Shown piece after piece: positions 26,460-42,700 of a stretch of DNA of 64,000 bases; position 1 is the stretch's first letter, and the number at the start of each line of letters is the position of its first letter. Where the stretch lies: IMG/VR virus record IMGVR_UViG_3300045988_113203, positions 1 through 64,000 of that record. One strand, written 5' to 3'. A program made the position numbers and the translations under genes. Source of the DNA: a virus. A model generated the notes under the pieces. That model was not told where the DNA came from. It did no database searches and was given only the letters and a program-made list of their open reading frames with translations.

Positions 26460-26738
26460 ATGGGCAGATCAACAGAGTACTACAGGACTCATCCCGAAGC
26501 CAGGAAGAAAAAGGCTAAAAAGGACAAGGAGATAAATGCCAGACCGGAACAGAAAGCCAAACGCCGAGAGCTTGGTCGTAAAAACTACGAAACGGACAAG
26601 AAGAAGGGTAAGGGCTGGAGAAAAGGAAAGGATTGTTCTCATACCAAGAACGGTCTTAGGTATAAATCAGTAAAAGCTAATAGGGGATCCAAATCGGATA
26701 CAAAAGGTGACAAAAATGCACGAGGAGATAGCAAATAG
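26460..26738 (+). CDS. Hypothetical highly basic (K/R-rich) protein (92 aa)
   Basis: ORF. Overlaps the start of the next gene. Confidence 0.4.
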   Translation: MGRSTEYYRTHPEARKKKAKKDKEINARPEQKAKRRELGRKNYETDKKKGKGWRKGKDCSHTKNGLRYKSVKANRGSKSDTKGDKNARGDSK

Positions 26739-27840
26739 GATAGATATAAGAAGGATATTCAAGACCTCTAAACAGGTTATGGAAGAGGCGTATGAGAATA
26801 TCTTGAAATACAGGCGGGGAGAGCTTATCCCCGCTAAAACCGGATACGATTATATTGATGAGGCTTTGCTTGGAGGTATTTTTCCTCAGCATGCTATTGC
26901 TATAGGGGCCCGGCCATCTGTAGGTAAATCGTATGTGGCCCAAAAGATATTGGAAAATGTGATGAATCCGATGATCAACCCGCAAGCAGAAGATTATTTT
27001 CTTGTCAATTGCGAGTTCGAAATGAATCCTCAGGATCTTCTTCTTCGCAGAATGAGCCAGGATATGAAAAAGCGAGCTCCTGAAATATTAAGAAGGCAAG
27101 ATTCTAATACAGTAGAAGAGATGAGGATGTTTGAAATCCTTCAAGGTGAAATCAGAAATAATATAATATACATCGATGCTCCGTGTACGGTAAAAGAGTT
27201 TGAGGCGGCTGTGTATCATATAGCTACCAAACACAAAGACAAACGTCTTATAATATTTAAAGTCGATCATATTGCTTTGATAAAAAGAATGGGATTAGAT
27301 CCTAAGTCGGCTATAGATGATTTGGTGGCGGTTATGAACGAAGCTAAATTAGTATATAAAAACATATTTTTCCTCATCATATCCCAATTCAACAGAGAAA
27401 TAGAAGGAAGGATAAAAAGCCCACAAGAGCAGCCTCCGCGTCTTTCTGATTTTTACCAATCCGATACGCTGGGTCAGTTATGTACGTTAATGATAGGTTT
27501 GCACAATCCTCGTAGGTACGGGCTGGATAAGTATATGATATTTGGGAAAGACTGGTATCAGACCCTTGATAGGTTTAAAACTGAAAACAAAACATCATTC
27601 AGAACAGCCGGACTGGTGTTTCATCATATACTGAAGGTAAGGCAAGTTAGTATGGAAGAGCTTACTAATACAATCCACCCAGAGATACTGCCGGGACATG
27701 GATGGATGTACGGGGAGGGCGGGACGAAGTTCGTGAACCCCAACCAGCCGCCGACGCCGCCCAAGCTCTATACTGTGGAAGACGTTACGGACAATCAGGA
27801 ACAAGAACAAGAGACAAAAGAAGAACAGTCATTGTATTAA
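26707..27840 (+). CDS. DnaB-like replicative helicase (RecA-fold C-terminal domain). Walker A is GARPSVGKS, preceded by IDEALLGGIFP.
   Basis: Shine-Dalgarno AAAGG followed by ATG. Motifs read directly. The C-terminal tail is GC-rich. Confidence 0.65.
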   Translation: MTKMHEEIANRIDIRRIFKTSKQVMEEAYENILKYRRGELIPAKTGYDYIDEALLGGIFPQHAIAIGARPSVGKSYVAQKILENVMNPMINPQAEDYFLVNCEFEMNPQDLLLRRMSQDMKKRAPEILRRQDSNTVEEMRMFEILQGEIRNNIIYIDAPCTVKEFEAAVYHIATKHKDKRLIIFKVDHIALIKRMGLDPKSAIDDLVAVMNEAKLVYKNIFFLIISQFNREIEGRIKSPQEQPPRLSDFYQSDTLGQLCTLMIGLHNPRRYGLDKYMIFGKDWYQTLDRFKTENKTSFRTAGLVFHHILKVRQVSMEELTNTIHPEILPGHGWMYGEGGTKFVNPNQPPTPPKLYTVEDVTDNQEQEQETKEEQSLY

Positions 27841-27855
27841 AAAAAAATAAGAACC

Positions 27856-28458
27856 ATGAGACTGACAGTAGAAGAAAACGAATACCTGATAAGTAAGTTC
27901 CTTTTGGTTCTTACTGAATTTGCAGGGGATGAAAGAGAGATGTTTTTAATCAACTCCATACATGATAAGGCGGTGGCGGATATGAATTATCGTCTTCCGT
28001 CTTTAATAAGCAGAGAACGTAAAAGACGAGTTATTGAGCTCCTTAAAGAAGGAACCAGAATAATCAAGGACTTTTCCGGCTATGCAGGTGATATGGGTAT
28101 GATTAACGAATACGATCGCCTAAAGAAAGAAATAGGAACCGTCCAAGACCAGCTTGGTGACGTAGAAGGTCAACTTCGGGCAGCAGGAGAAGTTATTAAA
28201 AAAGAACTTGATATGATTGCTGACCGAATCAAAGAAGATCTTCTTGACCGAGAGCTGGCCAAAAGTAATGCCGAGGCCGAAAGAAAAGCCAAAGTAGATC
28301 CGAGATACGAAGTAGCTTTAGGTGATTACAAGGAGATGCTGGAAGTGATTTTTACAACCAGAAACAAGTATTCTACGGTAGATTCTGTACATGACGATCT
28401 TCGACAGTCGGTATCTACCGGTAGAAATTCGATTATTAAAGAAGGGTACAACAGTTAA
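27856..28458 (+). CDS. Hypothetical coiled-coil protein (200 aa)
   Basis: ORF. Confidence 0.5.
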   Translation: MRLTVEENEYLISKFLLVLTEFAGDEREMFLINSIHDKAVADMNYRLPSLISRERKRRVIELLKEGTRIIKDFSGYAGDMGMINEYDRLKKEIGTVQDQLGDVEGQLRAAGEVIKKELDMIADRIKEDLLDRELAKSNAEAERKAKVDPRYEVALGDYKEMLEVIFTTRNKYSTVDSVHDDLRQSVSTGRNSIIKEGYNS

Positions 28459-28473
28459 AAACAAGGAGGAAAT

Positions 28474-28671
28474 ATGGAAAAGAAGGAATTTAAAGTAGGA
28501 GAAGTATTTACTGCCGGACTTGTAAGATTAAAATGTGTGGAAGGTGATACATGCGATAGGTGTATATTCGAAGATTACGATTCTTGTTCATGTACAGACA
28601 TAATTATTGGTCTATGTGGACATGTTGATAGACAAGATAACAAGAATGTTATTTTTATTAAAGCTGATTAG
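28474..28671 (+). CDS. Hypothetical Cys-rich protein (65 aa)
   Basis: Shine-Dalgarno AAGGAGG followed by ATG. Confidence 0.5.
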   Translation: MEKKEFKVGEVFTAGLVRLKCVEGDTCDRCIFEDYDSCSCTDIIIGLCGHVDRQDNKNVIFIKAD

Positions 28672-28673
28672 GC

Positions 28674-29387
28674 ATGTACATCAATTTCAGACAACTTGCA
28701 TCATCAGACATGACTCCTAATGATCTTGCTAATCTTCTTGCCATAAGACAGAAGGATTCGGTTATGATCGAAGCCATGCCGGAAGAAGATGCTGGTAGAT
28801 ATATAGAACTTGGCCTGGTTGAGAAATTAAAATCAGGCGTGATGAGATTAACCAACAAAGGAACGTCTTTTGTAAATTATATAGAGACACCGGAAATGAC
28901 AGACGAGGTTCTGGAAACGTTGAAGATTATGATAGGAATGTACGAATCATATTCAAAAGACATAGGTGTCAGTAGAAAAGAAGCGGAATCCAGATTGTGT
29001 TGGTTTATGGGTAACACCTCATTTAAGAAAGAGGTCATACTTCAGGTAACGGAATCTTATATAGCAGAGTCAGGAGATTATACAATGAGCTTATGTAACT
29101 TTATATGGAAACCGCCTTCTCAGGTTTTTTCAGTCCATATGAACCTTAAAAACTCAAAGCTCTTCGACTTAATAGCTGAAAAATTCAAGATCGCTACCGA
29201 GCCTTATTTGGAGTCTAAGAAGAATAAGGAAATGGATTGGTTGTTTGCCGTATCTAAATTGCCTACGCCGCCGGCTAAAGGCAATCCGGATTATTTGTTT
29301 ACCGGAAGTTCTGAAACAGACAAAGAGAGATTGAAAAACATAAAAACGTATTTATTTAACAAAATTAGAAAGCAATGGAAAAAGTAG
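28674..29387 (+). CDS. Hypothetical protein (237 aa)
   Basis: ORF. Confidence 0.55.
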   Translation: MYINFRQLASSDMTPNDLANLLAIRQKDSVMIEAMPEEDAGRYIELGLVEKLKSGVMRLTNKGTSFVNYIETPEMTDEVLETLKIMIGMYESYSKDIGVSRKEAESRLCWFMGNTSFKKEVILQVTESYIAESGDYTMSLCNFIWKPPSQVFSVHMNLKNSKLFDLIAEKFKIATEPYLESKKNKEMDWLFAVSKLPTPPAKGNPDYLFTGSSETDKERLKNIKTYLFNKIRKQWKK

Positions 29388-29626
29388 AAATCAGAAAGAT
29401 TATAGAGGATATAATTATTACTCAGTTTCTTAATTCAGAAATGGATATAGTTCATGAAGAAGATGTGACGTTTAAAGAACTTGGATTAGATTCTCTTGAT
29501 CAAATTGAACTTGAAATGATGGTGGAACAAAAATTCAATATTGTTATTATTGATTATGATATGGAGACCATCAAAGATATGACTGATCTTGTTTACAAAA
29601 TAATAACAGAAGGATATGGGAAGTGA
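29375..29626 (+). CDS. acpP: Acyl carrier protein (83 aa), with the phosphopantetheine-attachment motif LGLDSLDQIELEMMVEQKF
   Basis: The whole sequence aligns by eye to bacterial ACP. Residues E-L-G-(A/L)-D-S-L-D precede a four-helix-compatible pattern. Confidence 0.8.
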   Translation: MEKVEIRKIIEDIIITQFLNSEMDIVHEEDVTFKELGLDSLDQIELEMMVEQKFNIVIIDYDMETIKDMTDLVYKIITEGYGK

Positions 29627-30110
29627 TATAATTTTATGCATGGCTTTAATAGCGTCATTTGCTTTTGTTATACAGTTTTTGTTGTCGATATTAGGATCTG
29701 ATCTGGATACGGATATTGACATTGACAGTGCTTCTGATTTAAGCATGTCTTTGTCGGACATCATATCATTCAAGGGCATAACACATTTCATTCTTGGATA
29801 TAGCTGGACTACTTACTTTTCGGGTTCCCATTTAGTAGGGGTTGTGATAGGGTCGTTTTTCTTTATCGTTTTGTTTTACGTATATAAGTTACTTCTTAAG
29901 TTAAAACAAGAAATGGCGTACGAATGTCCGGAAGATTTGAATGGCAGAGAGGTGGAGATAGTATTTAGATCAGGGAAGAACCATTATATGGTAAATATTT
30001 CGAAAAATGGAAGACAGGAGCAAATGAGAGTAAGATGCTTGTCTGGAAAAACTTACAAAAACGGTGACAAGGTGAATATAAAATATGAAGAAGGAGAATT
30101 AAGTATCTAA
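29616..30110 (+). CDS. NfeD-like membrane protein (164 aa). N-terminal transmembrane helices plus a C-terminal OB-fold-like beta domain, as in YuaF/YqiJ.
   Basis: Hydrophobic N-terminal half. The C-terminal EVEIVFRSGKNHYMVNI...RVRCLSGKTYKNGDKVNI matches the NfeD short-form pattern. Sits immediately upstream of an SPFH gene, as in bacterial operons. Confidence 0.6.
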   Translation: MGSDIILCMALIASFAFVIQFLLSILGSDLDTDIDIDSASDLSMSLSDIISFKGITHFILGYSWTTYFSGSHLVGVVIGSFFFIVLFYVYKLLLKLKQEMAYECPEDLNGREVEIVFRSGKNHYMVNISKNGRQEQMRVRCLSGKTYKNGDKVNIKYEEGELSI

Positions 30111-30143
30111 TTTTTTTTTATCAACAATTAAATTTTAAAAGTT

Positions 30144-31844
30144 ATGACAACAATCATGTACGTGTCAGCTATCTTAGCTGTAGTGATTATTTTAACAATC
30201 ATCGGAGTCTTATCAAGGTATCGTAGATGTAAGCCTAATCAGGTCTTGGTCGTTTATGGTAAGACAGGTGGGGAAAAGAAATCGGCGAAATTATATCATG
30301 GTGGAGCGGCATTCGTCTTGCCTATTATTCAAAGCTATGATGTTTTGTCAATGGAGCCTATGCAAATAGATTGCAAGCTTACCGGTGCTTTGTCATCTCA
30401 GAATATTAGAGTAGATGTACCTACAACCATTACAGTAGCTATCAGTACAAATCCCGAAATCATGCAAAATGCGGCAGAAAGACTTTTGGGGATGGATACC
30501 GAATCTACTGAAAATCTTATTACGGACATCGTTTACGGTCAGATGCGTTTGATTATTGCTGAAATGACAATCGAAAAACTTAATTCTGACAGGGATGAGT
30601 TTTTGGATAAGGCAAGAAAGAACATTGATAACGAGCTTAACAAGTTAGGTCTTTACCTCCTGAACATCAACATCAGTGACATTAGAGACGAAGCCGGTTA
30701 TATTATGAACCTTGGTAAGGAAGCTGAAAGTAGGGCTCTGAACGAGGCACAGGCTAATATCGAAGAACAGGAGAAGCTGGGTGCTATTAAGATTGCTGTA
30801 CAGCAGAAGGAGAAAGAAACGGCTGTGGCTAATACCAAAAAAGAACAAGAGATTCAAATTGCTTGTACTGAAAAAGAAAAGGAAACGATAGTAGCTGAAA
30901 CGAAGAAAGAAAAAGAAATAGCTTTAGCTTTAACCGATAAAGAGAAACAGATCGGTGTAGCTCAAGCAGATAGAGACAGGGCTGCGGTTATCGCAAAAAC
31001 TTTAACCGACAAGGAATCGGCGATCGTAAGATCTAAGGCAGAACTTGAAGTAAATAAAGCCGAGGCTGAAAGGATGGAAGAAGTCGGAAAGAATAAGGCT
31101 GAAGCTGACAAGGAAGCAGCTATAGCAATACAAGACTCTGAAGCTCAGATTAAGAAGGCTGAGGCTGAGAAAAATGCGTCTATAGGATACAACAATGCCC
31201 AGAAGGAGGTTGCTGTGTCAGTATCAGAACTACAGATTATCAAAGCTCAATCAGAAAAGAAGGCCGGAGAAGAAAAAGTTAAATCGGAAGCGGCTGTAAA
31301 AACGGCAAAAGAGCTTGCTGATAAAGAAGTGGAAGAAGCTAAGGCTAAGAAAGTTCAGGCTGCGCTTAAGGCTGAAAAGATTGTGCCGGCTGAAACCCAG
31401 AAGGAAGAGGCTATATTACAAGCTGATGCTGAGGCCGAGAAGATCAAACGCCGGGCTGAGGCTGAGGCAGCAGCACATTTGGCAAAAGCTGAGGCAGAGG
31501 CAAAGGCTATTCAGATGAAGCTGGAGGCAGAAGCCGAAGGTAAGAAAAAGTCGTTAATGGCAGAAGCCGACGGATTTAAGGCTATGGTGGAAGCAGCAGA
31601 ATCCAATCCTCAGATCGCCATTCAGTACAAGATGGTTAATCAGTGGAAAGAAATTGCTGGAGAACAGGTTAAGGCGTTCGAGCACATCAATCTCGGAAAT
31701 ATCACGGTATTTGACGGTGGTCAAAACAGCACCGGTAATTTCCTTAACAATGTTGTCAAGACCGTCGCTCCGGCATTGGGAGTCATTGATCAGCTTCCGA
31801 TTGCAGATACTTTAAAGAAATTAAAAGGAGATGACAAAAAATAA
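30144..31844 (+). CDS. Flotillin-like SPFH/band-7 protein (566 aa). N-terminal transmembrane helix, SPFH domain, long EA/KE-rich coiled coil and a flotillin C-terminal region.
   Basis: Architecture and sequence resemble bacterial FloT/YqiK. Relevant segments include IDCKLTGALSSQNIRVDV... and IAEMTIEKLNSDRDEF. Confidence 0.8.
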   Translation: MTTIMYVSAILAVVIILTIIGVLSRYRRCKPNQVLVVYGKTGGEKKSAKLYHGGAAFVLPIIQSYDVLSMEPMQIDCKLTGALSSQNIRVDVPTTITVAISTNPEIMQNAAERLLGMDTESTENLITDIVYGQMRLIIAEMTIEKLNSDRDEFLDKARKNIDNELNKLGLYLLNINISDIRDEAGYIMNLGKEAESRALNEAQANIEEQEKLGAIKIAVQQKEKETAVANTKKEQEIQIACTEKEKETIVAETKKEKEIALALTDKEKQIGVAQADRDRAAVIAKTLTDKESAIVRSKAELEVNKAEAERMEEVGKNKAEADKEAAIAIQDSEAQIKKAEAEKNASIGYNNAQKEVAVSVSELQIIKAQSEKKAGEEKVKSEAAVKTAKELADKEVEEAKAKKVQAALKAEKIVPAETQKEEAILQADAEAEKIKRRAEAEAAAHLAKAEAEAKAIQMKLEAEAEGKKKSLMAEADGFKAMVEAAESNPQIAIQYKMVNQWKEIAGEQVKAFEHINLGNITVFDGGQNSTGNFLNNVVKTVAPALGVIDQLPIADTLKKLKGDDKK

Positions 31845-31851
31845 ATACAAT

Positions 31852-31873
31852 GGCCCAAGGTTACACTTGGGCC
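31852..31873 (+). terminator. Hairpin GGCCCAAG-GTTACA-CTTGGGCC directly after the flotillin stop codon
   Basis: 8-bp GC stem. The downstream U-tract is weak. Confidence 0.4.
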
Positions 31874-32058
31874 TAATTGAAGAAATAAAAGCAGCATTCA
31901 TAGATTTCCTGCCTGCGGGAACAGTGATTTTAAGTGCTTTACTAATTACGATATTTTTAACATGGATTTTGGACAAGATTTAGAACCAGAAGAACTGACC
32001 AAGCATTATGATCAGTGTTATGGAATTGATTTTGAAACAGAAGAAGAGGAGGATGAAG

Positions 32059-32367
32059 AGTATGACTGATGAGGAATTTGTATTGGATAATAAGAAAAAG
32101 GTTGTTGTAAGAAAAAGAATATCTTATTTAAGCAAAGGTGATAAAGTGTGGATCGTGTCTTCCGACGGGTATCTACTACACACGGACGTAGTTAGAGCCG
32201 ACCGGGGCCGATCTTATGTGGATATAGACGGGATACTGTATTGGAAGCGAGGATTAGATGGCAAACATCGTAATCGTAATAACTACATGCAGTTTGCCAT
32301 GACACCAGAAGACGGTAAGAAGTATGTCGTATATTACCCGGAAGGATTTAAAGACAATGACTTATGA
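32059..32367 (+). CDS. Hypothetical protein (about 102 aa; start at MTDEEF)
   Basis: Shine-Dalgarno GAGGAGGA upstream of the internal ATG. The longer ORF-track start is rejected. Confidence 0.5.
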   Translation, partial: SMTDEEFVLDNKKKVVVRKRISYLSKGDKVWIVSSDGYLLHTDVVRADRGRSYVDIDGILYWKRGLDGKHRNRNNYMQFAMTPEDGKKYVVYYPEGFKDNDL

Positions 32368-33383
32368 TGGTCCCAGAAACGCATTTGCTATATAAGGAGT
32401 TTAATGGTGTGAAACGTCTTGCCATTTCTTATTCCCAGATAGATACGTTTCTTACTTGTCCAATGAAATGGTATAAGACTTACGTAGAGGGCAAAAGGTC
32501 TACAGAAAAACAAGAAGCTACGTCTTATGGTACGGTTATTCATAAGACACTGGAATACTTCTTCAAGAACGGAAGGCAGCCTTCTGGCAAAGACCTTGGA
32601 GAAGCAATAAGTTACTATGCTTACCAAGAAGACATACCTTGGCTATCACCGGAAAATATGATGATAGCCATGAAACAATCTGGGGAGCTTCTTGCTTGGA
32701 TTGTGGATCTGTTTAAAAAAGACGGGAATAGGTTTATGATAGCTGATAGTGATCTTAATCCCTGTGAGAAACTTATCAGACACGGCGCTATAGTTGGAGT
32801 CGAAGAAGATTTTGTGCTGCCGTACCGTCTTCCTAAGCCTGTTGATATAAATGGGGTAATTCATACCCATGTGTACATAGTAGGATCAGTGGATCTTCAT
32901 CTGGCTATAAAAAGCAAGAACGTAGTTCACCATTATGTCATAGATTGGAAATCAGGAAATAAGGTTTTTGATTCTAAGAAGCTGGAAACAAATTTACAGC
33001 ATCCTATATATTCATTTTACATCTATAGAAGATATGGTGGGGTTCTACCAGATATGAACATCTATTTCTTTACCAGGACCAGGCAGTACCAAAAGGTTAA
33101 GGTAGATGAAGAGCGTAAAACAAAATCTATAGAAATGCTAAATGACACTTTATCTAAAATGTATGATTTTGAAGATAATAGTGTAAAATCATTTCAAGCG
33201 TACATCCAGGGAGCAGAAGGAGCCAGGTATAGCAAGCGGCGTGCCACCCTAAGCCAGCCTGTTCCGCAAAACAAGCTGCCCTGCCCGTCGGCACTGTGTT
33301 ATTATTGTGACTTTGGATTACATAACAAAAACGAATGCCCTTTCTCTTCAGATTGGGATCCGTCTAAAAAGATAAAACGATGA
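32364..33383 (+). CDS. Cas4/RecB-like PD-(D/E)xK exonuclease with a C-terminal Cys cluster (339 aa)
   Basis: N-terminal SYSQIDTFLTCPMKWYKTYV; motif III-like VIDWKSG. C-terminal CPSALCYYCDF...ECPF. Confidence 0.6.
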   Translation: MMVPETHLLYKEFNGVKRLAISYSQIDTFLTCPMKWYKTYVEGKRSTEKQEATSYGTVIHKTLEYFFKNGRQPSGKDLGEAISYYAYQEDIPWLSPENMMIAMKQSGELLAWIVDLFKKDGNRFMIADSDLNPCEKLIRHGAIVGVEEDFVLPYRLPKPVDINGVIHTHVYIVGSVDLHLAIKSKNVVHHYVIDWKSGNKVFDSKKLETNLQHPIYSFYIYRRYGGVLPDMNIYFFTRTRQYQKVKVDEERKTKSIEMLNDTLSKMYDFEDNSVKSFQAYIQGAEGARYSKRRATLSQPVPQNKLPCPSALCYYCDFGLHNKNECPFSSDWDPSKKIKR

Positions 33384-38592: not shown

Positions 38593-39298
38593 TTACGCAG
38601 CAAAAGCCAGAAAAGCTTATTTGATAAATAATTTCGATAAGATTCTTAACAGTCTTAACACGCTTCATTCGACGGTTGAGACCATGACGTTGTTCGTAAA
38701 CGACCAGGCTTATAATTACATTCTTAAGCTGAAGGGAGTGGTTAAAGGCGGTCCTATGTACAGACATAATGTTAAGCGTTTTTTTAATGAGATGGACAAA
38801 GAGATAAAGAGGTACAATGCTTCTATCTACTACATAAACAAAGAACGTAGTGAGGTTATTGCTGACATAACACAGGTTATGGAAGACTGTCTCATGCCAT
38901 ACATAGACGACCTGGCCGGCGCCATCAAGTCTGGCGTGTCGTCGAAGGGTCTGTCGGAGGAGCGGACGGAGGTGGCGGTGCTGTCCCTAATCGTATCCTC
39001 CTTGGCTACGACATCAGGCAGACTTATTTCAGGTGGATATCAGATCATGAAAGAAATGGGTGGTGGTCAAGGTGGTAACCCATTTACGTTTATGAGCATT
39101 GATAAGATAAGACACTTATCTACATCATTATCTGATGCTATTACCGGTGGAGAGATTGCTCTTGAAGAAAAAGAAGCCAATGACATAACTAAGGCAATGG
39201 ATGTTTTTATTGAGAAAATGTCTGATTCGGATATTGTTGATAAGGTGATCAGCATACTCGAAGAAGCAGAATCTAAAAATAAGGAGGAGCGATCGTGA
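38576..39298 (+). CDS. Hypothetical protein (240 aa) with an internal GC-rich island (38900-39000)
   Basis: ORF. Confidence 0.5.
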   Translation: MNAMINYAAKARKAYLINNFDKILNSLNTLHSTVETMTLFVNDQAYNYILKLKGVVKGGPMYRHNVKRFFNEMDKEIKRYNASIYYINKERSEVIADITQVMEDCLMPYIDDLAGAIKSGVSSKGLSEERTEVAVLSLIVSSLATTSGRLISGGYQIMKEMGGGQGGNPFTFMSIDKIRHLSTSLSDAITGGEIALEEKEANDITKAMDVFIEKMSDSDIVDKVISILEEAESKNKEERS

Positions 39299-39486
39299 AT
39301 TATTTGGATGGATATGTAGAAGAGGTTCTTTCCGAGCCGTATTATGATGATTACGGATCGGGAATTTTCAGGTGGTGGGTAAAAGTATCTTACGTTTGTG
39401 AAGGCATAAGAGCTGTCACTACCTTAATGTTTGATACAAAAGAAGAAGCAGAGGCAGTAAAACCAGGTTACAAATTTTTATGTTGA
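39295..39486 (+). CDS. Hypothetical protein (63 aa)
   Basis: ORF with an ATGA overlap. Last gene of the + strand block. Confidence 0.45.
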   Translation: MNYLDGYVEEVLSEPYYDDYGSGIFRWWVKVSYVCEGIRAVTTLMFDTKEEAEAVKPGYKFLC

Positions 39487-39509
39487 AAATAATATGAGAT
39501 ATTTTGTTT

Positions 39510-39525
39510 GTTGTATATAATCACC
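39510..39525 (+). promoter_or_regulatory. Second exact copy of the 16-mer GTTGTATATAATCACC
   Basis: Identical to 14275-14290. Sits 20 nt upstream of the convergent terminator hairpin. Confidence 0.3.
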
Positions 39526-39547
39526 TTTTTTTTCATAACAAAAGAAA

Positions 39548-39579
39548 CCGGTTCTCTATCATCTCTGACTGAGAACCGG
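39548..39579. terminator. Convergent (bidirectional) terminator hairpin CCGGTTCTC-(14-nt loop)-GAGAACCGG, flanked by T-run and A-run tracts, between the + strand block and the - strand block
   Basis: 9-bp perfect stem. A T-run lies on the + strand upstream and an A-run downstream, which is a U-run for the - strand. Confidence 0.6.
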
Positions 39580-39715
39580 CAAGAAAACAATTTCAAAAAA
39601 AATTAAACCTACATAATCTTTCAAGTAAGAACAAAAACGTACAATCTACTCTTTGACAATGCTAAGATAGTATATTGAAATCATACCAAAACAATGCAAG
39701 CCCAATATTCTTCGT

Positions 39716-42700
39716 CTACTTGTAGCTAACATCATCGTCTCCTTCCGAATCAGGAGTGGCGCCGATGAAGAACATCATTGACTTGTTGTTTGTCTGCTGC
39801 CACCAATTATAGGCGCGCGCTATGTCTTCCGGCGTCTTGATATTATACCATTGTTTGATAAACGTCTGTTTGGCGAGTTGCCTAAATAACTTAAACTCTC
39901 CTTTGTATGTACCGGATGTTACTTTATCAAGTGAGTAGTTCCTAAGATCGGTAAGATCCTTAAGTTTCCGTCCCATAACAAATGGGTCGTTAATGATATC
40001 AACCACGTTAAGCTCCATAATAAATGGCATCTGTGAAGCTATTTCGTTTATGGTTCTGAATCCGACGTAGGATCCGAATTGAGTAAGCCAACTTTCCTCG
40101 TTTTCATCATCATCACGCCACCCGGCAAGAAGCATAGATACGGCTTGCATGATAAGGAACGTGCCGGCATAGACACTGAGACGTTTTAGATTGGTTTTCT
40201 CTACCTCATTCATATTGTCTTTATTTTCGTTCCAGGCATCTATGATGTTTTTCATACCAGACTCGGAAGCTAAGCTAAATGTTTTGGCTATCATATTCTT
40301 TAACGTAATTGACAGTCCTTCCTCTTCTTGCATTGTCTGGAAATTGAAGCCACGTCTTTTCCACAGACGTTGAGCCGCCAGCACCAACCAGCCTCGGTGG
40401 GCGGTCATGAACCTGGCTATCCAGTTGCGCGATGCGGCAGTTCGATTTTCTTCATTCAAAGATCCGTTACATATCTGCGACAAGCTACGGACTTGATTCC
40501 TGGTTATAGCCATCTGGGTTTCAACTTCCTCAACAGTAACACCCGATCCCGGCTTTACAACCACCTTTCCATCCACGACGTCTACCATACTCCATAAAGT
40601 ACGATCTTTTAATGCGTTCCATTCTCTTTTTATGGTACTCTGTTCTTTATTGCGTTCTTTTTCCATCTTGAAATCTTGGAACGTGTAGAACCGGCCTTTA
40701 TAGTATCGCACGTTATCCATCGTAGCGATCATAACCTGCGGATCAAGAGGGTAGTTCAGGATTTCCATAAAAACATACATAGGTGAACGCATTAAAGTCC
40801 TGGCCACTCTATTGTATCCGGCACCATACATACGATTTCGGATATTGAATATTCCCATCCTCTCACCTATGACATATAATTTACTTTTTCTATCTATGTC
40901 TCCGATTTCTGCTATACAAGATGGCGCAAGACGTGAAAACTCAGCCGATGCGTATTTAAGGGAATCTTTGCTTATATACTGTCCTACGGCAGATTCCATG
41001 ATGAGGTTAATATGACCTGTTAAGGCGCCGGTAGCTGCCACAAACGGGGACAGCGCCAGGTTCATGACCGACATAAATCTTTCAACGGCCATCATTATCC
41101 TGGTAAGGTCTACTGTGTATCCTCCGATGTTCACCGTAAGTTTTTTGGTGTTCATCCTAATGCCATAATAATGATCGTTGAAGAAGTCTCTAAACATCTG
41201 ATATGCTTGAGTCGCTTCAGCTTTCTTCCCGCCTTCAAATTGCTTATTCAGTAACATCTGCTCCAGTCCTTGAGCGAGCTCTATAGACTTCTGCTTTTCG
41301 TTGTATAACGATGACTGCATCATAAGCATCGAATAAGAGTAGCCAAAATCGTGAGATACGTCATCTTGGTTCTCTAATTCATATATGTAGTATTTAGGTA
41401 TGGACCGAACCCTATCTTCCGGATCATATACCTCACCCTGGCGTGTTTTACCATACAGGGAGTCATCTACGCGGTCAAGACATAAGTCGGATACGAAGTT
41501 CCTGACCGTACTTTTAAGGCTGATACCTAACCCTTCTATACGTTCTATATCTTGTTTGGATATCTGTGGAATAGCATACAGGTTCGGGCTCTGCTCTTTG
41601 TATAGATCAAGGGATTGTCTTTTTATTTCCTTGAGTTTTTGAATCATATTCCACTGCTCTACGTTTTTGGTAGCAACTTCATTACCGTCAGCATCATACT
41701 TAATGCCGAAGTCGTTGAAATACGATTCATCACGATACAGGCTCTTCTTGGGCATACGATGACCATACCCATGATCTTTTACATAATCAGGGTTACGACC
41801 GCTATTTTCGGCCTCAGATTCAGCCACCCACGCTCTTGCAGGGTCGAAAGACAGGTACGATATGTCCATGCCATAATCTTGAGTGGATGTACCGTTTTGT
41901 ACGTCCTTAACCATCTGCGCTACATCTATCTCACCTCGACCAATTTTGTCGATCATAGCCGCGTATCCGGTAGGTGCCATGCGTTTATAGTACGAAAAGA
42001 CCTGGCTCCTGGCAAATTCATTAACGATCGCATTAGCTTCTTCTACACCCTCTTCTCTTGTGTTATTTAAAAACAAGCTGGCCATCTTAGCATTGACAGC
42101 ATTCTTAAAATCTCTACCGTTTAATTCTTTGCTTATACCAAGCTTTTCTGACAGGTAGTTGGTTTCAGATACGGTAAACAAATACCGGTTATCAGCAGCC
42201 TTAAACAGCTTATCCCTTAAAGCCTGAATCCTTTTTGCTTTCTTCGCCGTAGTATGACGTTGTACGAACTTCCATTCCACTTCCTTGGAGTCAGCAAGAG
42301 CATTTAAATAAGACTGATTTACTTCGTTTTCAGCCTTACTGCTTTTAGTAAGGTACTTATCAATATCTTCAAGACCCACCATCTTAGCATAATCTATCAA
42401 AATAGCGTAATCGGCTTCAATAGCTTCGGATGCAGCCCTAAAAGCATCTCTTTCGGATGAGGTAAATGTCGCTTCATTAATTTCTCCGATATCAGCCACA
42501 TCGCGGTTGTTGCCGATTATTTCCTTGATAATGGCCTTATTTTTTTCTATATCTTTTACAATCGAATCCACGTCAGTCGCATCTCTATCACTTGTCGTAG
42601 AACTAATGATATCATGCGCCATTTTGAGATACGAAGCCTTGTTATTTGATTCGGTGCGCGCCGACTGTTCCGATTCTATATCATTCCAAAACCGATCGTT

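Follow-up and report, generated by a model that had tools for sequence, protein, structure and literature searches.

This analysis concerns a flotillin gene and its neighbours in a 64,000-nucleotide stretch of viral DNA (positions 1 to 64,000 of IMG/VR record IMGVR_UViG_3300045988_113203; hereafter the window). The source is a human-gut crAss-like phage of an abundant lineage, close to csAssE-Sib. Window positions 28000–33000 are 97.6% identical to GenBank OR575929, a complete 151-kb genome of csAssE-Sib that encodes crAss-type muzzle and ring proteins and gives CrAss_Ring Pfam matches. Five closely packed genes occupy 28674–31983 on the plus strand. The winged-helix gene orf237 (28674–29387, 237 amino acids) and an acyl carrier protein (ACP)-like gene paired with it (29375–29626, 83 amino acids) belong to the phage backbone; they are followed by the gene for a membrane protein with a putative C-terminal OB-fold domain that we call NfeD-like (YuaF-type) and refer to as the flotillin partner (29616–30110, 164 amino acids), by the flotillin gene itself (30144–31844, 566 amino acids), which begins after a gap of 33 nt, and by orf50 (31831–31983, 50 amino acids), a small membrane open reading frame (ORF) taken from the ORF list. 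An earlier note on this DNA had described an ACP, an NfeD-like protein and a flotillin from position 28674 onwards. These three genes are real and lie on the plus strand, but 28674 is the start of orf237, a winged-helix gene that the note left undescribed, and not of the ACP, and orf50 was overlooked as well. The annotation of OR575929 at this locus reads 'acyl carrier protein', 'transmembrane protein' and 'flotillin family protein', and the gene names ACP and flotillin were thus already known. What appears to be undescribed, within the literature that we could search, is the homology of the partner, the Bacteroidales origin of the pair, the cargo slot in which it resides, its recurrent deletion and its independence of the ACP.

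The flotillin, its partner and their Bacteroidales counterparts

The flotillin has both of the expected domains, each above its Pfam threshold: Band_7 at residues 30–211 (PF01145, 91.7 bits against a gathering score of 23.6, E 7.6e-26) and the C-terminal Flot domain at residues 450–559 (PF15975, 38 bits against 27, E 2e-9). Residues 212–450 in between are Ala/Glu/Lys-rich and read from the translation as an EA/KE coiled coil, in agreement with the 566-residue SPFH protein that the earlier note had proposed. Against the FloT equivalog model NF058507 the protein scores 144.5 bits, under the cutoff of 700. A hydrophobic segment at residues 4–24 (IMYVSAILAVVIILTIIGVLS) is a putative N-terminal membrane anchor and, judging from translation and alignment, is conserved in the host copies described below. 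The SPFH and C-terminal domains are likewise highly conserved relative to those copies, and the coiled coil differs in both sequence and length. The coiled-coil region forms the wall in SPFH cages, and its length may therefore set cage height. Flotillin alleles of the phage lineage range from 467 to 595 residues via in-frame coiled-coil indels, and an 85-residue in-frame coiled-coil deletion (P0289) is present on seven contigs; no DNA-level tandem repeats that would explain this variation in coiled-coil length were found.

The assignment of the 164-residue partner to NfeD holds in part. The partner has no match in Pfam (including PF01957, at E ≤ 0.1), PHROG, NCBIfam or PADLOC, and two Bacteroidales partner proteins also gave no match to PF01957 at E ≤ 0.05. 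Its AlphaFold model has hydrophobic helices at residues 2–27, 52–69 and 72–103, a disordered acidic loop (DxDxD) and a C-terminal beta domain modelled at a predicted local distance difference test (pLDDT) score of ~85. An exhaustive profile search yielded 417 clusters in the partner family, and two of 79 diverse distant relatives match PF01957, the best at 6e-5. When a 79-member partner profile was searched against the PDB, B. subtilis YuaF came out on top, with a weak E value of 0.028 and with the whole OB domain covered; a profile from six close homologues returned only noise against PDB sequences, and the 79-sequence profile was needed to reach YuaF. Because PF01957 is not matched, but the model, the weak YuaF link and the adjacency to flotillin point the same way, we therefore call the partner NfeD-like (YuaF-type) by predicted fold, architecture and operon context, and place it outside the Pfam NfeD sequence model.

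To trace the pair in bacteria, one genome per prokaryotic species was surveyed. This gave 80 loci, nearly all from named Bacteroidales, and the addition of two metagenome contigs that carry the same partner–flotillin pair together with housekeeping genes brought the total to 82 bacterial loci. The operon occurs in Bacteroides, Parabacteroides, Phocaeicola, Prevotella and relatives. A partner homologue with 30–41% identity to the phage partner (30–43% over all comparisons) lies 35–173 nt upstream of flotillin on the same strand in 81 of the 82 loci, and the phage flotillin is 62–67% identical to the bacterial proteins by tblastn and 66–70% identical in the multiple alignment. Phage and chromosomal operons thus agree in the two genes, their order and strand, the short gap and the domain architecture (a membrane/OB protein of ~165 residues followed by a flotillin of ~545 residues). 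The phage copies differ in forming a long separate branch, in having an extra, overlapping 50-residue membrane ORF and in their location in a replication block. On these comparisons the pair is shown to be homologous to a conserved Bacteroidales chromosomal operon and, as judged from sequence, to be host-derived. The yuaF-floT-type organisation that the earlier note had recognised therefore has a direct homologue on Bacteroidales chromosomes. The B. subtilis yuaF-floT (NfeD2 plus flotillin) and E. coli yqiJ-yqiK operons are related in kind, but not as orthologues, with the phage partner failing Pfam NfeD and the flotillin falling below the FloT cutoff.

Across bacterial families the flotillins are mostly 82–97% identical to each other (one Phocaeicola vulgatus copy, at ~72%, is lower), and in the multiple alignment the flotillins of both phage clades, the window's own and the 82% clade introduced below, are 66–70% identical to every bacterial copy compared. 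Hence the capture is an old one, or divergence after it was fast. No homologues of orf237, the ACP-like gene, orf50 or orf119, the gene that follows orf50, occur within 4 kb of the operon in the 82 bacterial loci. The orf50 product has a C-terminal hydrophobic helix, and the gene overlaps the flotillin stop codon and is conserved in the phage clades with 76% and 82% flotillin identity. It has no counterpart near the bacterial operons, where no conserved small ORF lies downstream of flotillin, and from its sequence distribution orf50 is judged to be phage-specific. Two of the bacterial metagenome flotillins (L004:6001–7980, 659 amino acids, and L008:6001–7869, 622 amino acids) carry an internal duplication of ~60–100 residues across the end of the SPFH domain, which is either real or an assembly artefact.

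The cargo slot and its natural deletions

The block from orf237 through the ACP-like gene, partner and flotillin to orf50 is kept in phage relatives whose flotillins are 82% or 76% identical to that of the window. A sister clade, with orf237 at 60–75% identity, keeps DnaB, orf200, orf237, the ACP-like gene, an orf119 homologue and the exonuclease, but has no flotillin pair. Here a cytosine-5 DNA methyltransferase gene lies between the ACP-like gene and orf119, and two radical-SAM genes follow orf119 (L169:6941–9946, with equivalents in L257, where the methylase ORF has 635 amino acids, and in L258, where the second radical-SAM ORF has 683). Remoter relatives have other genes again after the orf237 homologue. 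Among related phages, therefore, the cluster named in the earlier note holds together in the 76% and 82% clades and comes apart in the sister clade, which has the ACP without the pair. IMG/VR surveys with flotillin or orf237 returned mostly near-identical contigs and gained four extra divergent loci. The site is a variable cargo slot in the replication gene block, between orf237–ACP and orf119–exonuclease; orf119 (32008–32367, plus strand, 119 amino acids) is a backbone gene that forms its right-hand edge. The presence of the operon in a replication region, which had been thought unexpected, is accounted for by this slot. As in a moron, we find host homologues, conserved flanks, differing cargo in relatives and dispensability.

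Dispensability is evident from 80 contigs that were picked only for having orf237 at ≥98% identity. An intact flotillin is missing in 18 of them, with at least 11 distinct deletion junctions between window positions 29956 and 32019 (relatives listed for this observation: L174, L175, L177, L179, L185, L186, L190, L196, L199–L201, L208, L209, L222, L227, L229, L237, L247, L253 and L254), and the flotillin is therefore dispensable cargo. Seven contigs share a clean 30113^31956 excision at short A/T microhomology that removes flotillin and orf50. In one deletion contig the N-terminus of the partner is joined in frame to the C-terminus of flotillin, and such an in-frame fusion is also present in two ENA assemblies from different samples; in one variant the partner is removed too. 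Most deletion variants have lost orf50 along with flotillin and retain orf119, and orf237 and the ACP-like gene are kept in every deletion contig that reaches that far (one stops right after orf237).

Where they are present, flotillin and partner are both shown to be under strong purifying selection. Computed against IMG/VR alleles of the same phage species, the ratio of nonsynonymous to synonymous substitution rates (dN/dS) is 0.019 for flotillin, 0.053 for the partner, 0.057 for orf237, 0.061 for orf119 and 0.30 for orf50; for the ACP-like gene it is 0.33, far above the values of its neighbours. Amino acid identities between the window's clade and the 82% clade are 82% for flotillin, 63% for the partner, 76% for orf237, 78% for DnaB and 41% for the ACP-like protein; synonymous divergence (dS) between these two clades is saturated for flotillin, partner and orf237.

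One relative carries an ORF-less insert of ~420 bp (L196:7496–7740) that matches the Rfam HEARO RNA RF02033 (94 bits, E 6e-20), an IscB-type guide-RNA family. The insertion point corresponds to window position ~32019, between orf50 and orf119, and the window itself has no insert. HEARO is present in 13 of the 80 relatives, comprising five of the 18 deletion variants and eight of the 62 intact ones, and with such a weak association it was rejected as the cause of the deletions.

The ACP-like protein and orf237

The ACP-like protein scores 27.7 bits with the PP-binding model PF00550, for which the cutoff is 20.8, and matches PHROG 5934 'acyl carrier protein' at E 6e-11; it contains the motif LGLDSLD and has an isoelectric point of 4.2. 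The ACP with a DSL site seen by the earlier note is thereby confirmed, yet the protein stays under every NCBIfam AcpP cutoff (best 37.2 bits against 71). Nearly all alleles of the window's phage species retain the attachment Ser, the exceptions being one Ser-to-Tyr substitution and a few stop or frameshift alleles; a stop codon or frameshift in the gene is found in about six of 79 contigs of that species. Sister-clade homologues have GFDDLD instead, in which Asp occupies the pantetheine-attachment site, in six of six loci (among them L169:6675–6938, L255:4563–4826, L256:6675–6944, L257:6675–6938 and L258:6675–6944), and the gene is still conserved and paired with the winged-helix gene. The existence of a clade without the pantetheine-bearing Ser speaks against acyl carriage being the role that is conserved in this protein.

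Its constant neighbour orf237 is likewise part of the conserved backbone; the ACP-like gene follows it in every case, and the coding ends of the two overlap. The model of its product predicts an N-terminal MarR-like winged helix and a helical C-terminal domain. We considered whether orf237, which is of Sfp-like size and overlaps the ACP-like gene, could be the missing phosphopantetheinyl transferase, but ruled this out, as the model has no transferase fold. No member of PF01648 or of the fatty-acid enzyme families was found by Pfam among 104 ORFs from the window and the rest of OR575929, in a screen that covered ORFs of 95–330 amino acids and reports families and not the matching ORF, and the annotation of OR575929 names no phosphopantetheinyl transferase or acyl-ACP enzyme over positions 1–143,989. 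The observation that the ACP lacks an obvious partner enzyme hence holds for the ORFs and annotation screened.

The same cannot be said for the idea that the ACP is part of the flotillin module. No ACP is found at the bacterial loci, the gene is kept in the flotillin deletions and it is present in the flotillin-less sister clade; for these reasons the ACP-like gene belongs to the phage backbone together with orf237, outside the flotillin operon. Most likely, its product is a small acidic cofactor that acts together with the winged-helix protein. With low probability, the winged-helix and ACP-fold proteins might form a replication or transcription cofactor pair that is independent of a pantetheine arm. 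The PHROG 5934 ACPs and the ACP of Yersinia jumbo phage fHe-Yen9 are, like the protein described here, small acidic phage proteins of the PP-binding fold; what distinguishes the present protein is the invariable pairing with a winged-helix protein in the replication block and the change from Ser to Asp in the sister clade. For one phage ACP, a 2026 preprint predicts binding to host FabZ.

Possible roles of the phage scaffold

Cellular SPFH scaffolds are oligomeric domes attached to the membrane, and processes at the membrane are organised or protected by them. By analogy, the phage flotillin would oligomerise into a scaffold at the inner membrane of the host, where it could supplement, replace or mix with the very similar flotillin of the host. 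The roles suggested in the earlier note, namely control of FtsH, a replication site or exclusion, are conjectural. From their shared strand and tight spacing, the two genes of the pair are probably transcribed together with the replication genes around them. A scan with sigma-70 promoter and terminator models, which are ill-suited to Bacteroidales promoters, found sites no commoner than in shuffled sequence. The likely benefit would be to maintain a fluid, functional membrane in the infected cell, an advantage in certain hosts or circumstances and not a requirement for replication. We hold the identity and origin of the pair and its independence of the ACP to be highly probable. For the supplement-or-replace mechanism taken by itself our confidence is tentative and falls somewhat short of even. 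The statement as a whole, in which an old, Bacteroidales-derived NfeD-like/flotillin cargo, separate from the ACP, supplements or replaces the host scaffold, is in our judgement moderately probable.

Several points weigh against this interpretation. The role as a membrane scaffold is extrapolated from cellular homologues. The attachment Ser is conserved in the window's own species, in which a host enzyme could still pantetheinylate the ACP-like protein. A single IMG dataset (3300045988) contributed most of the viral contigs, and the samples may for that reason not be independent. Frequent deletion could mean that the module is mildly costly or neutral. A dN/dS of 0.02 argues for a function wherever flotillin is kept, and against mere cost or neutrality, but it was obtained from loci found by flotillin similarity, among which broken alleles are under-sampled.

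Of the other explanations, two concern the nature of the cluster itself. The clear bacterial homologues of the pair could point to a host-derived fragment or an assembly chimera. This explanation is excluded: the same arrangement is present in the complete 151-kb GenBank genome and recurs on many long viral contigs that stem from numerous assemblies (the phage flotillin comprises hundreds of protein clusters, on contigs of 76–155 kb, and at least 171 IMG/VR stretches), neither GC content nor GC skew shows a break between the region and its flanks, the nearest bacterial copy is only 62–70% identical (66–70% in the alignment), and backbone genes lie on either side, with a DnaB-like helicase (26707–27840) on the left and a PD-(D/E)XK exonuclease (32364–33383) on the right. 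The pair is phage-borne, as the earlier note had supposed. A further reading, along the lines of that note, is a single functional module of ACP, NfeD-like protein and flotillin, in which an acyl or other prosthetic group would pass from the ACP to the scaffold or to a phage enzyme. The three genes do lie side by side on the same strand, their ends overlapping or nearly touching, the ACP Ser is conserved within the phage species and the four-gene block persists in the 76% and 82% clades. Such a module is nevertheless largely refuted by gene distribution, and we consider it very improbable: an ACP homologue is found within 4 kb of the operon in none of the 82 bacterial loci, the ACP persists in flotillin-deletion variants, the sister-clade ACP has Asp for Ser and occurs without the NfeD-like and flotillin genes, the ACP evolves far faster than flotillin (41% versus 82% identity between clades; dN/dS 0.33 versus 0.02), and genome screens found no transferase or acyl-ACP enzyme.

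The remaining explanations accept the pair as independent phage cargo and assign it a different role. The phage flotillin might act against the host by co-assembling with the ~68% identical host flotillin and disabling or redirecting protease, secretion and cell-wall synthesis complexes. Near-identical SPFH and C-terminal oligomerisation regions next to a coiled coil of different sequence and length would suit such a role, as would the variation of phage alleles from 467 to 595 residues in the coiled coil and a partner that is much more diverged than flotillin. Nothing among our observations separates this model from supplementing or replacing the host scaffold, but a dedicated partner under purifying selection is easier to reconcile with a complex that works autonomously than with a poison subunit, and we regard an anti-host role as unlikely. 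We place at a similarly low level the broader view that the cassette is a conditionally selected infection or competition factor, acting for example in superinfection exclusion or in host-range tuning via membrane remodelling, whose presence/absence and coiled-coil polymorphism would be kept by fluctuating selection. More narrowly, the cassette could be a superinfection-exclusion or counter-defence determinant, polymorphic through fluctuating selection by rival phages or host defences. Recurrent independent losses combined with very strong purifying selection where the cassette is present would suit such a determinant, and the sister-clade slot holds typical arms-race cargo (DNA methylase and radical-SAM genes). 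Against this, PADLOC defence models match none of the six proteins scanned, literature searches turned up no SPFH protein in such a role, and the deletions are equally explicable by mutational hot spots or cost; we consider this narrower version distinctly doubtful. Supplementing or replacing the host scaffold thus remains the role that we put forward, at the tentative level given above.

Phage-borne SPFH-domain proteins, with no role assigned, are also annotated, and receive passing mention, in Vibrio phage KIT04, Xanthomonas phage X1 and a Segatella copri Crassvirales genus. The KIT04 protein differs from the flotillin described here, at 29% identity over half its length, and the 82-residue ORF upstream of it has no recognisable NfeD features. 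None of the papers found on SPFH proteins of other phages reports a captured partner–flotillin pair or population polymorphism, and our literature search returned no paper on csAssE-Sib and none in which crAss-like phages are connected with flotillin. To our knowledge, little is understood of what bacterial flotillins and NfeD-type partners do, and next to no work exists on them in Bacteroidales. That a whole captured operon is kept under strong purifying selection in a very abundant gut phage lineage suggests that it is important during infection. The natural deletion variants, which differ little outside the slot, would, given a cultured host, offer a ready comparison for the contribution of the scaffold to, for example, burst size, lysis timing, persistence or exclusion. 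Reading the adjacent ACP as phage backbone synteny, and not as part of a lipid-related operon, corrects a tempting over-reading.

Finally, some features elsewhere in the window and in its relative are of note. At window ~39000–41000 both GC skew and AT skew flip sign, which fits a change from plus-strand replication and early genes to minus-strand structural genes, as in the GenBank relative. The Pfam screen of mid-sized window ORFs (56 listed, with the matching ORFs not pinpointed) returned single matches to Resolvase (2.7e-24) and WDGH (1.1e-36), and one match each to Bro-N, an SMC/AAA_21/AAA_23-type ATPase and Lar restriction alleviation. The remainder of the related genome contains TnpB genes and a diversity-generating retroelement, and it encodes a Tad2-like (Thoeris anti-defence) domain.

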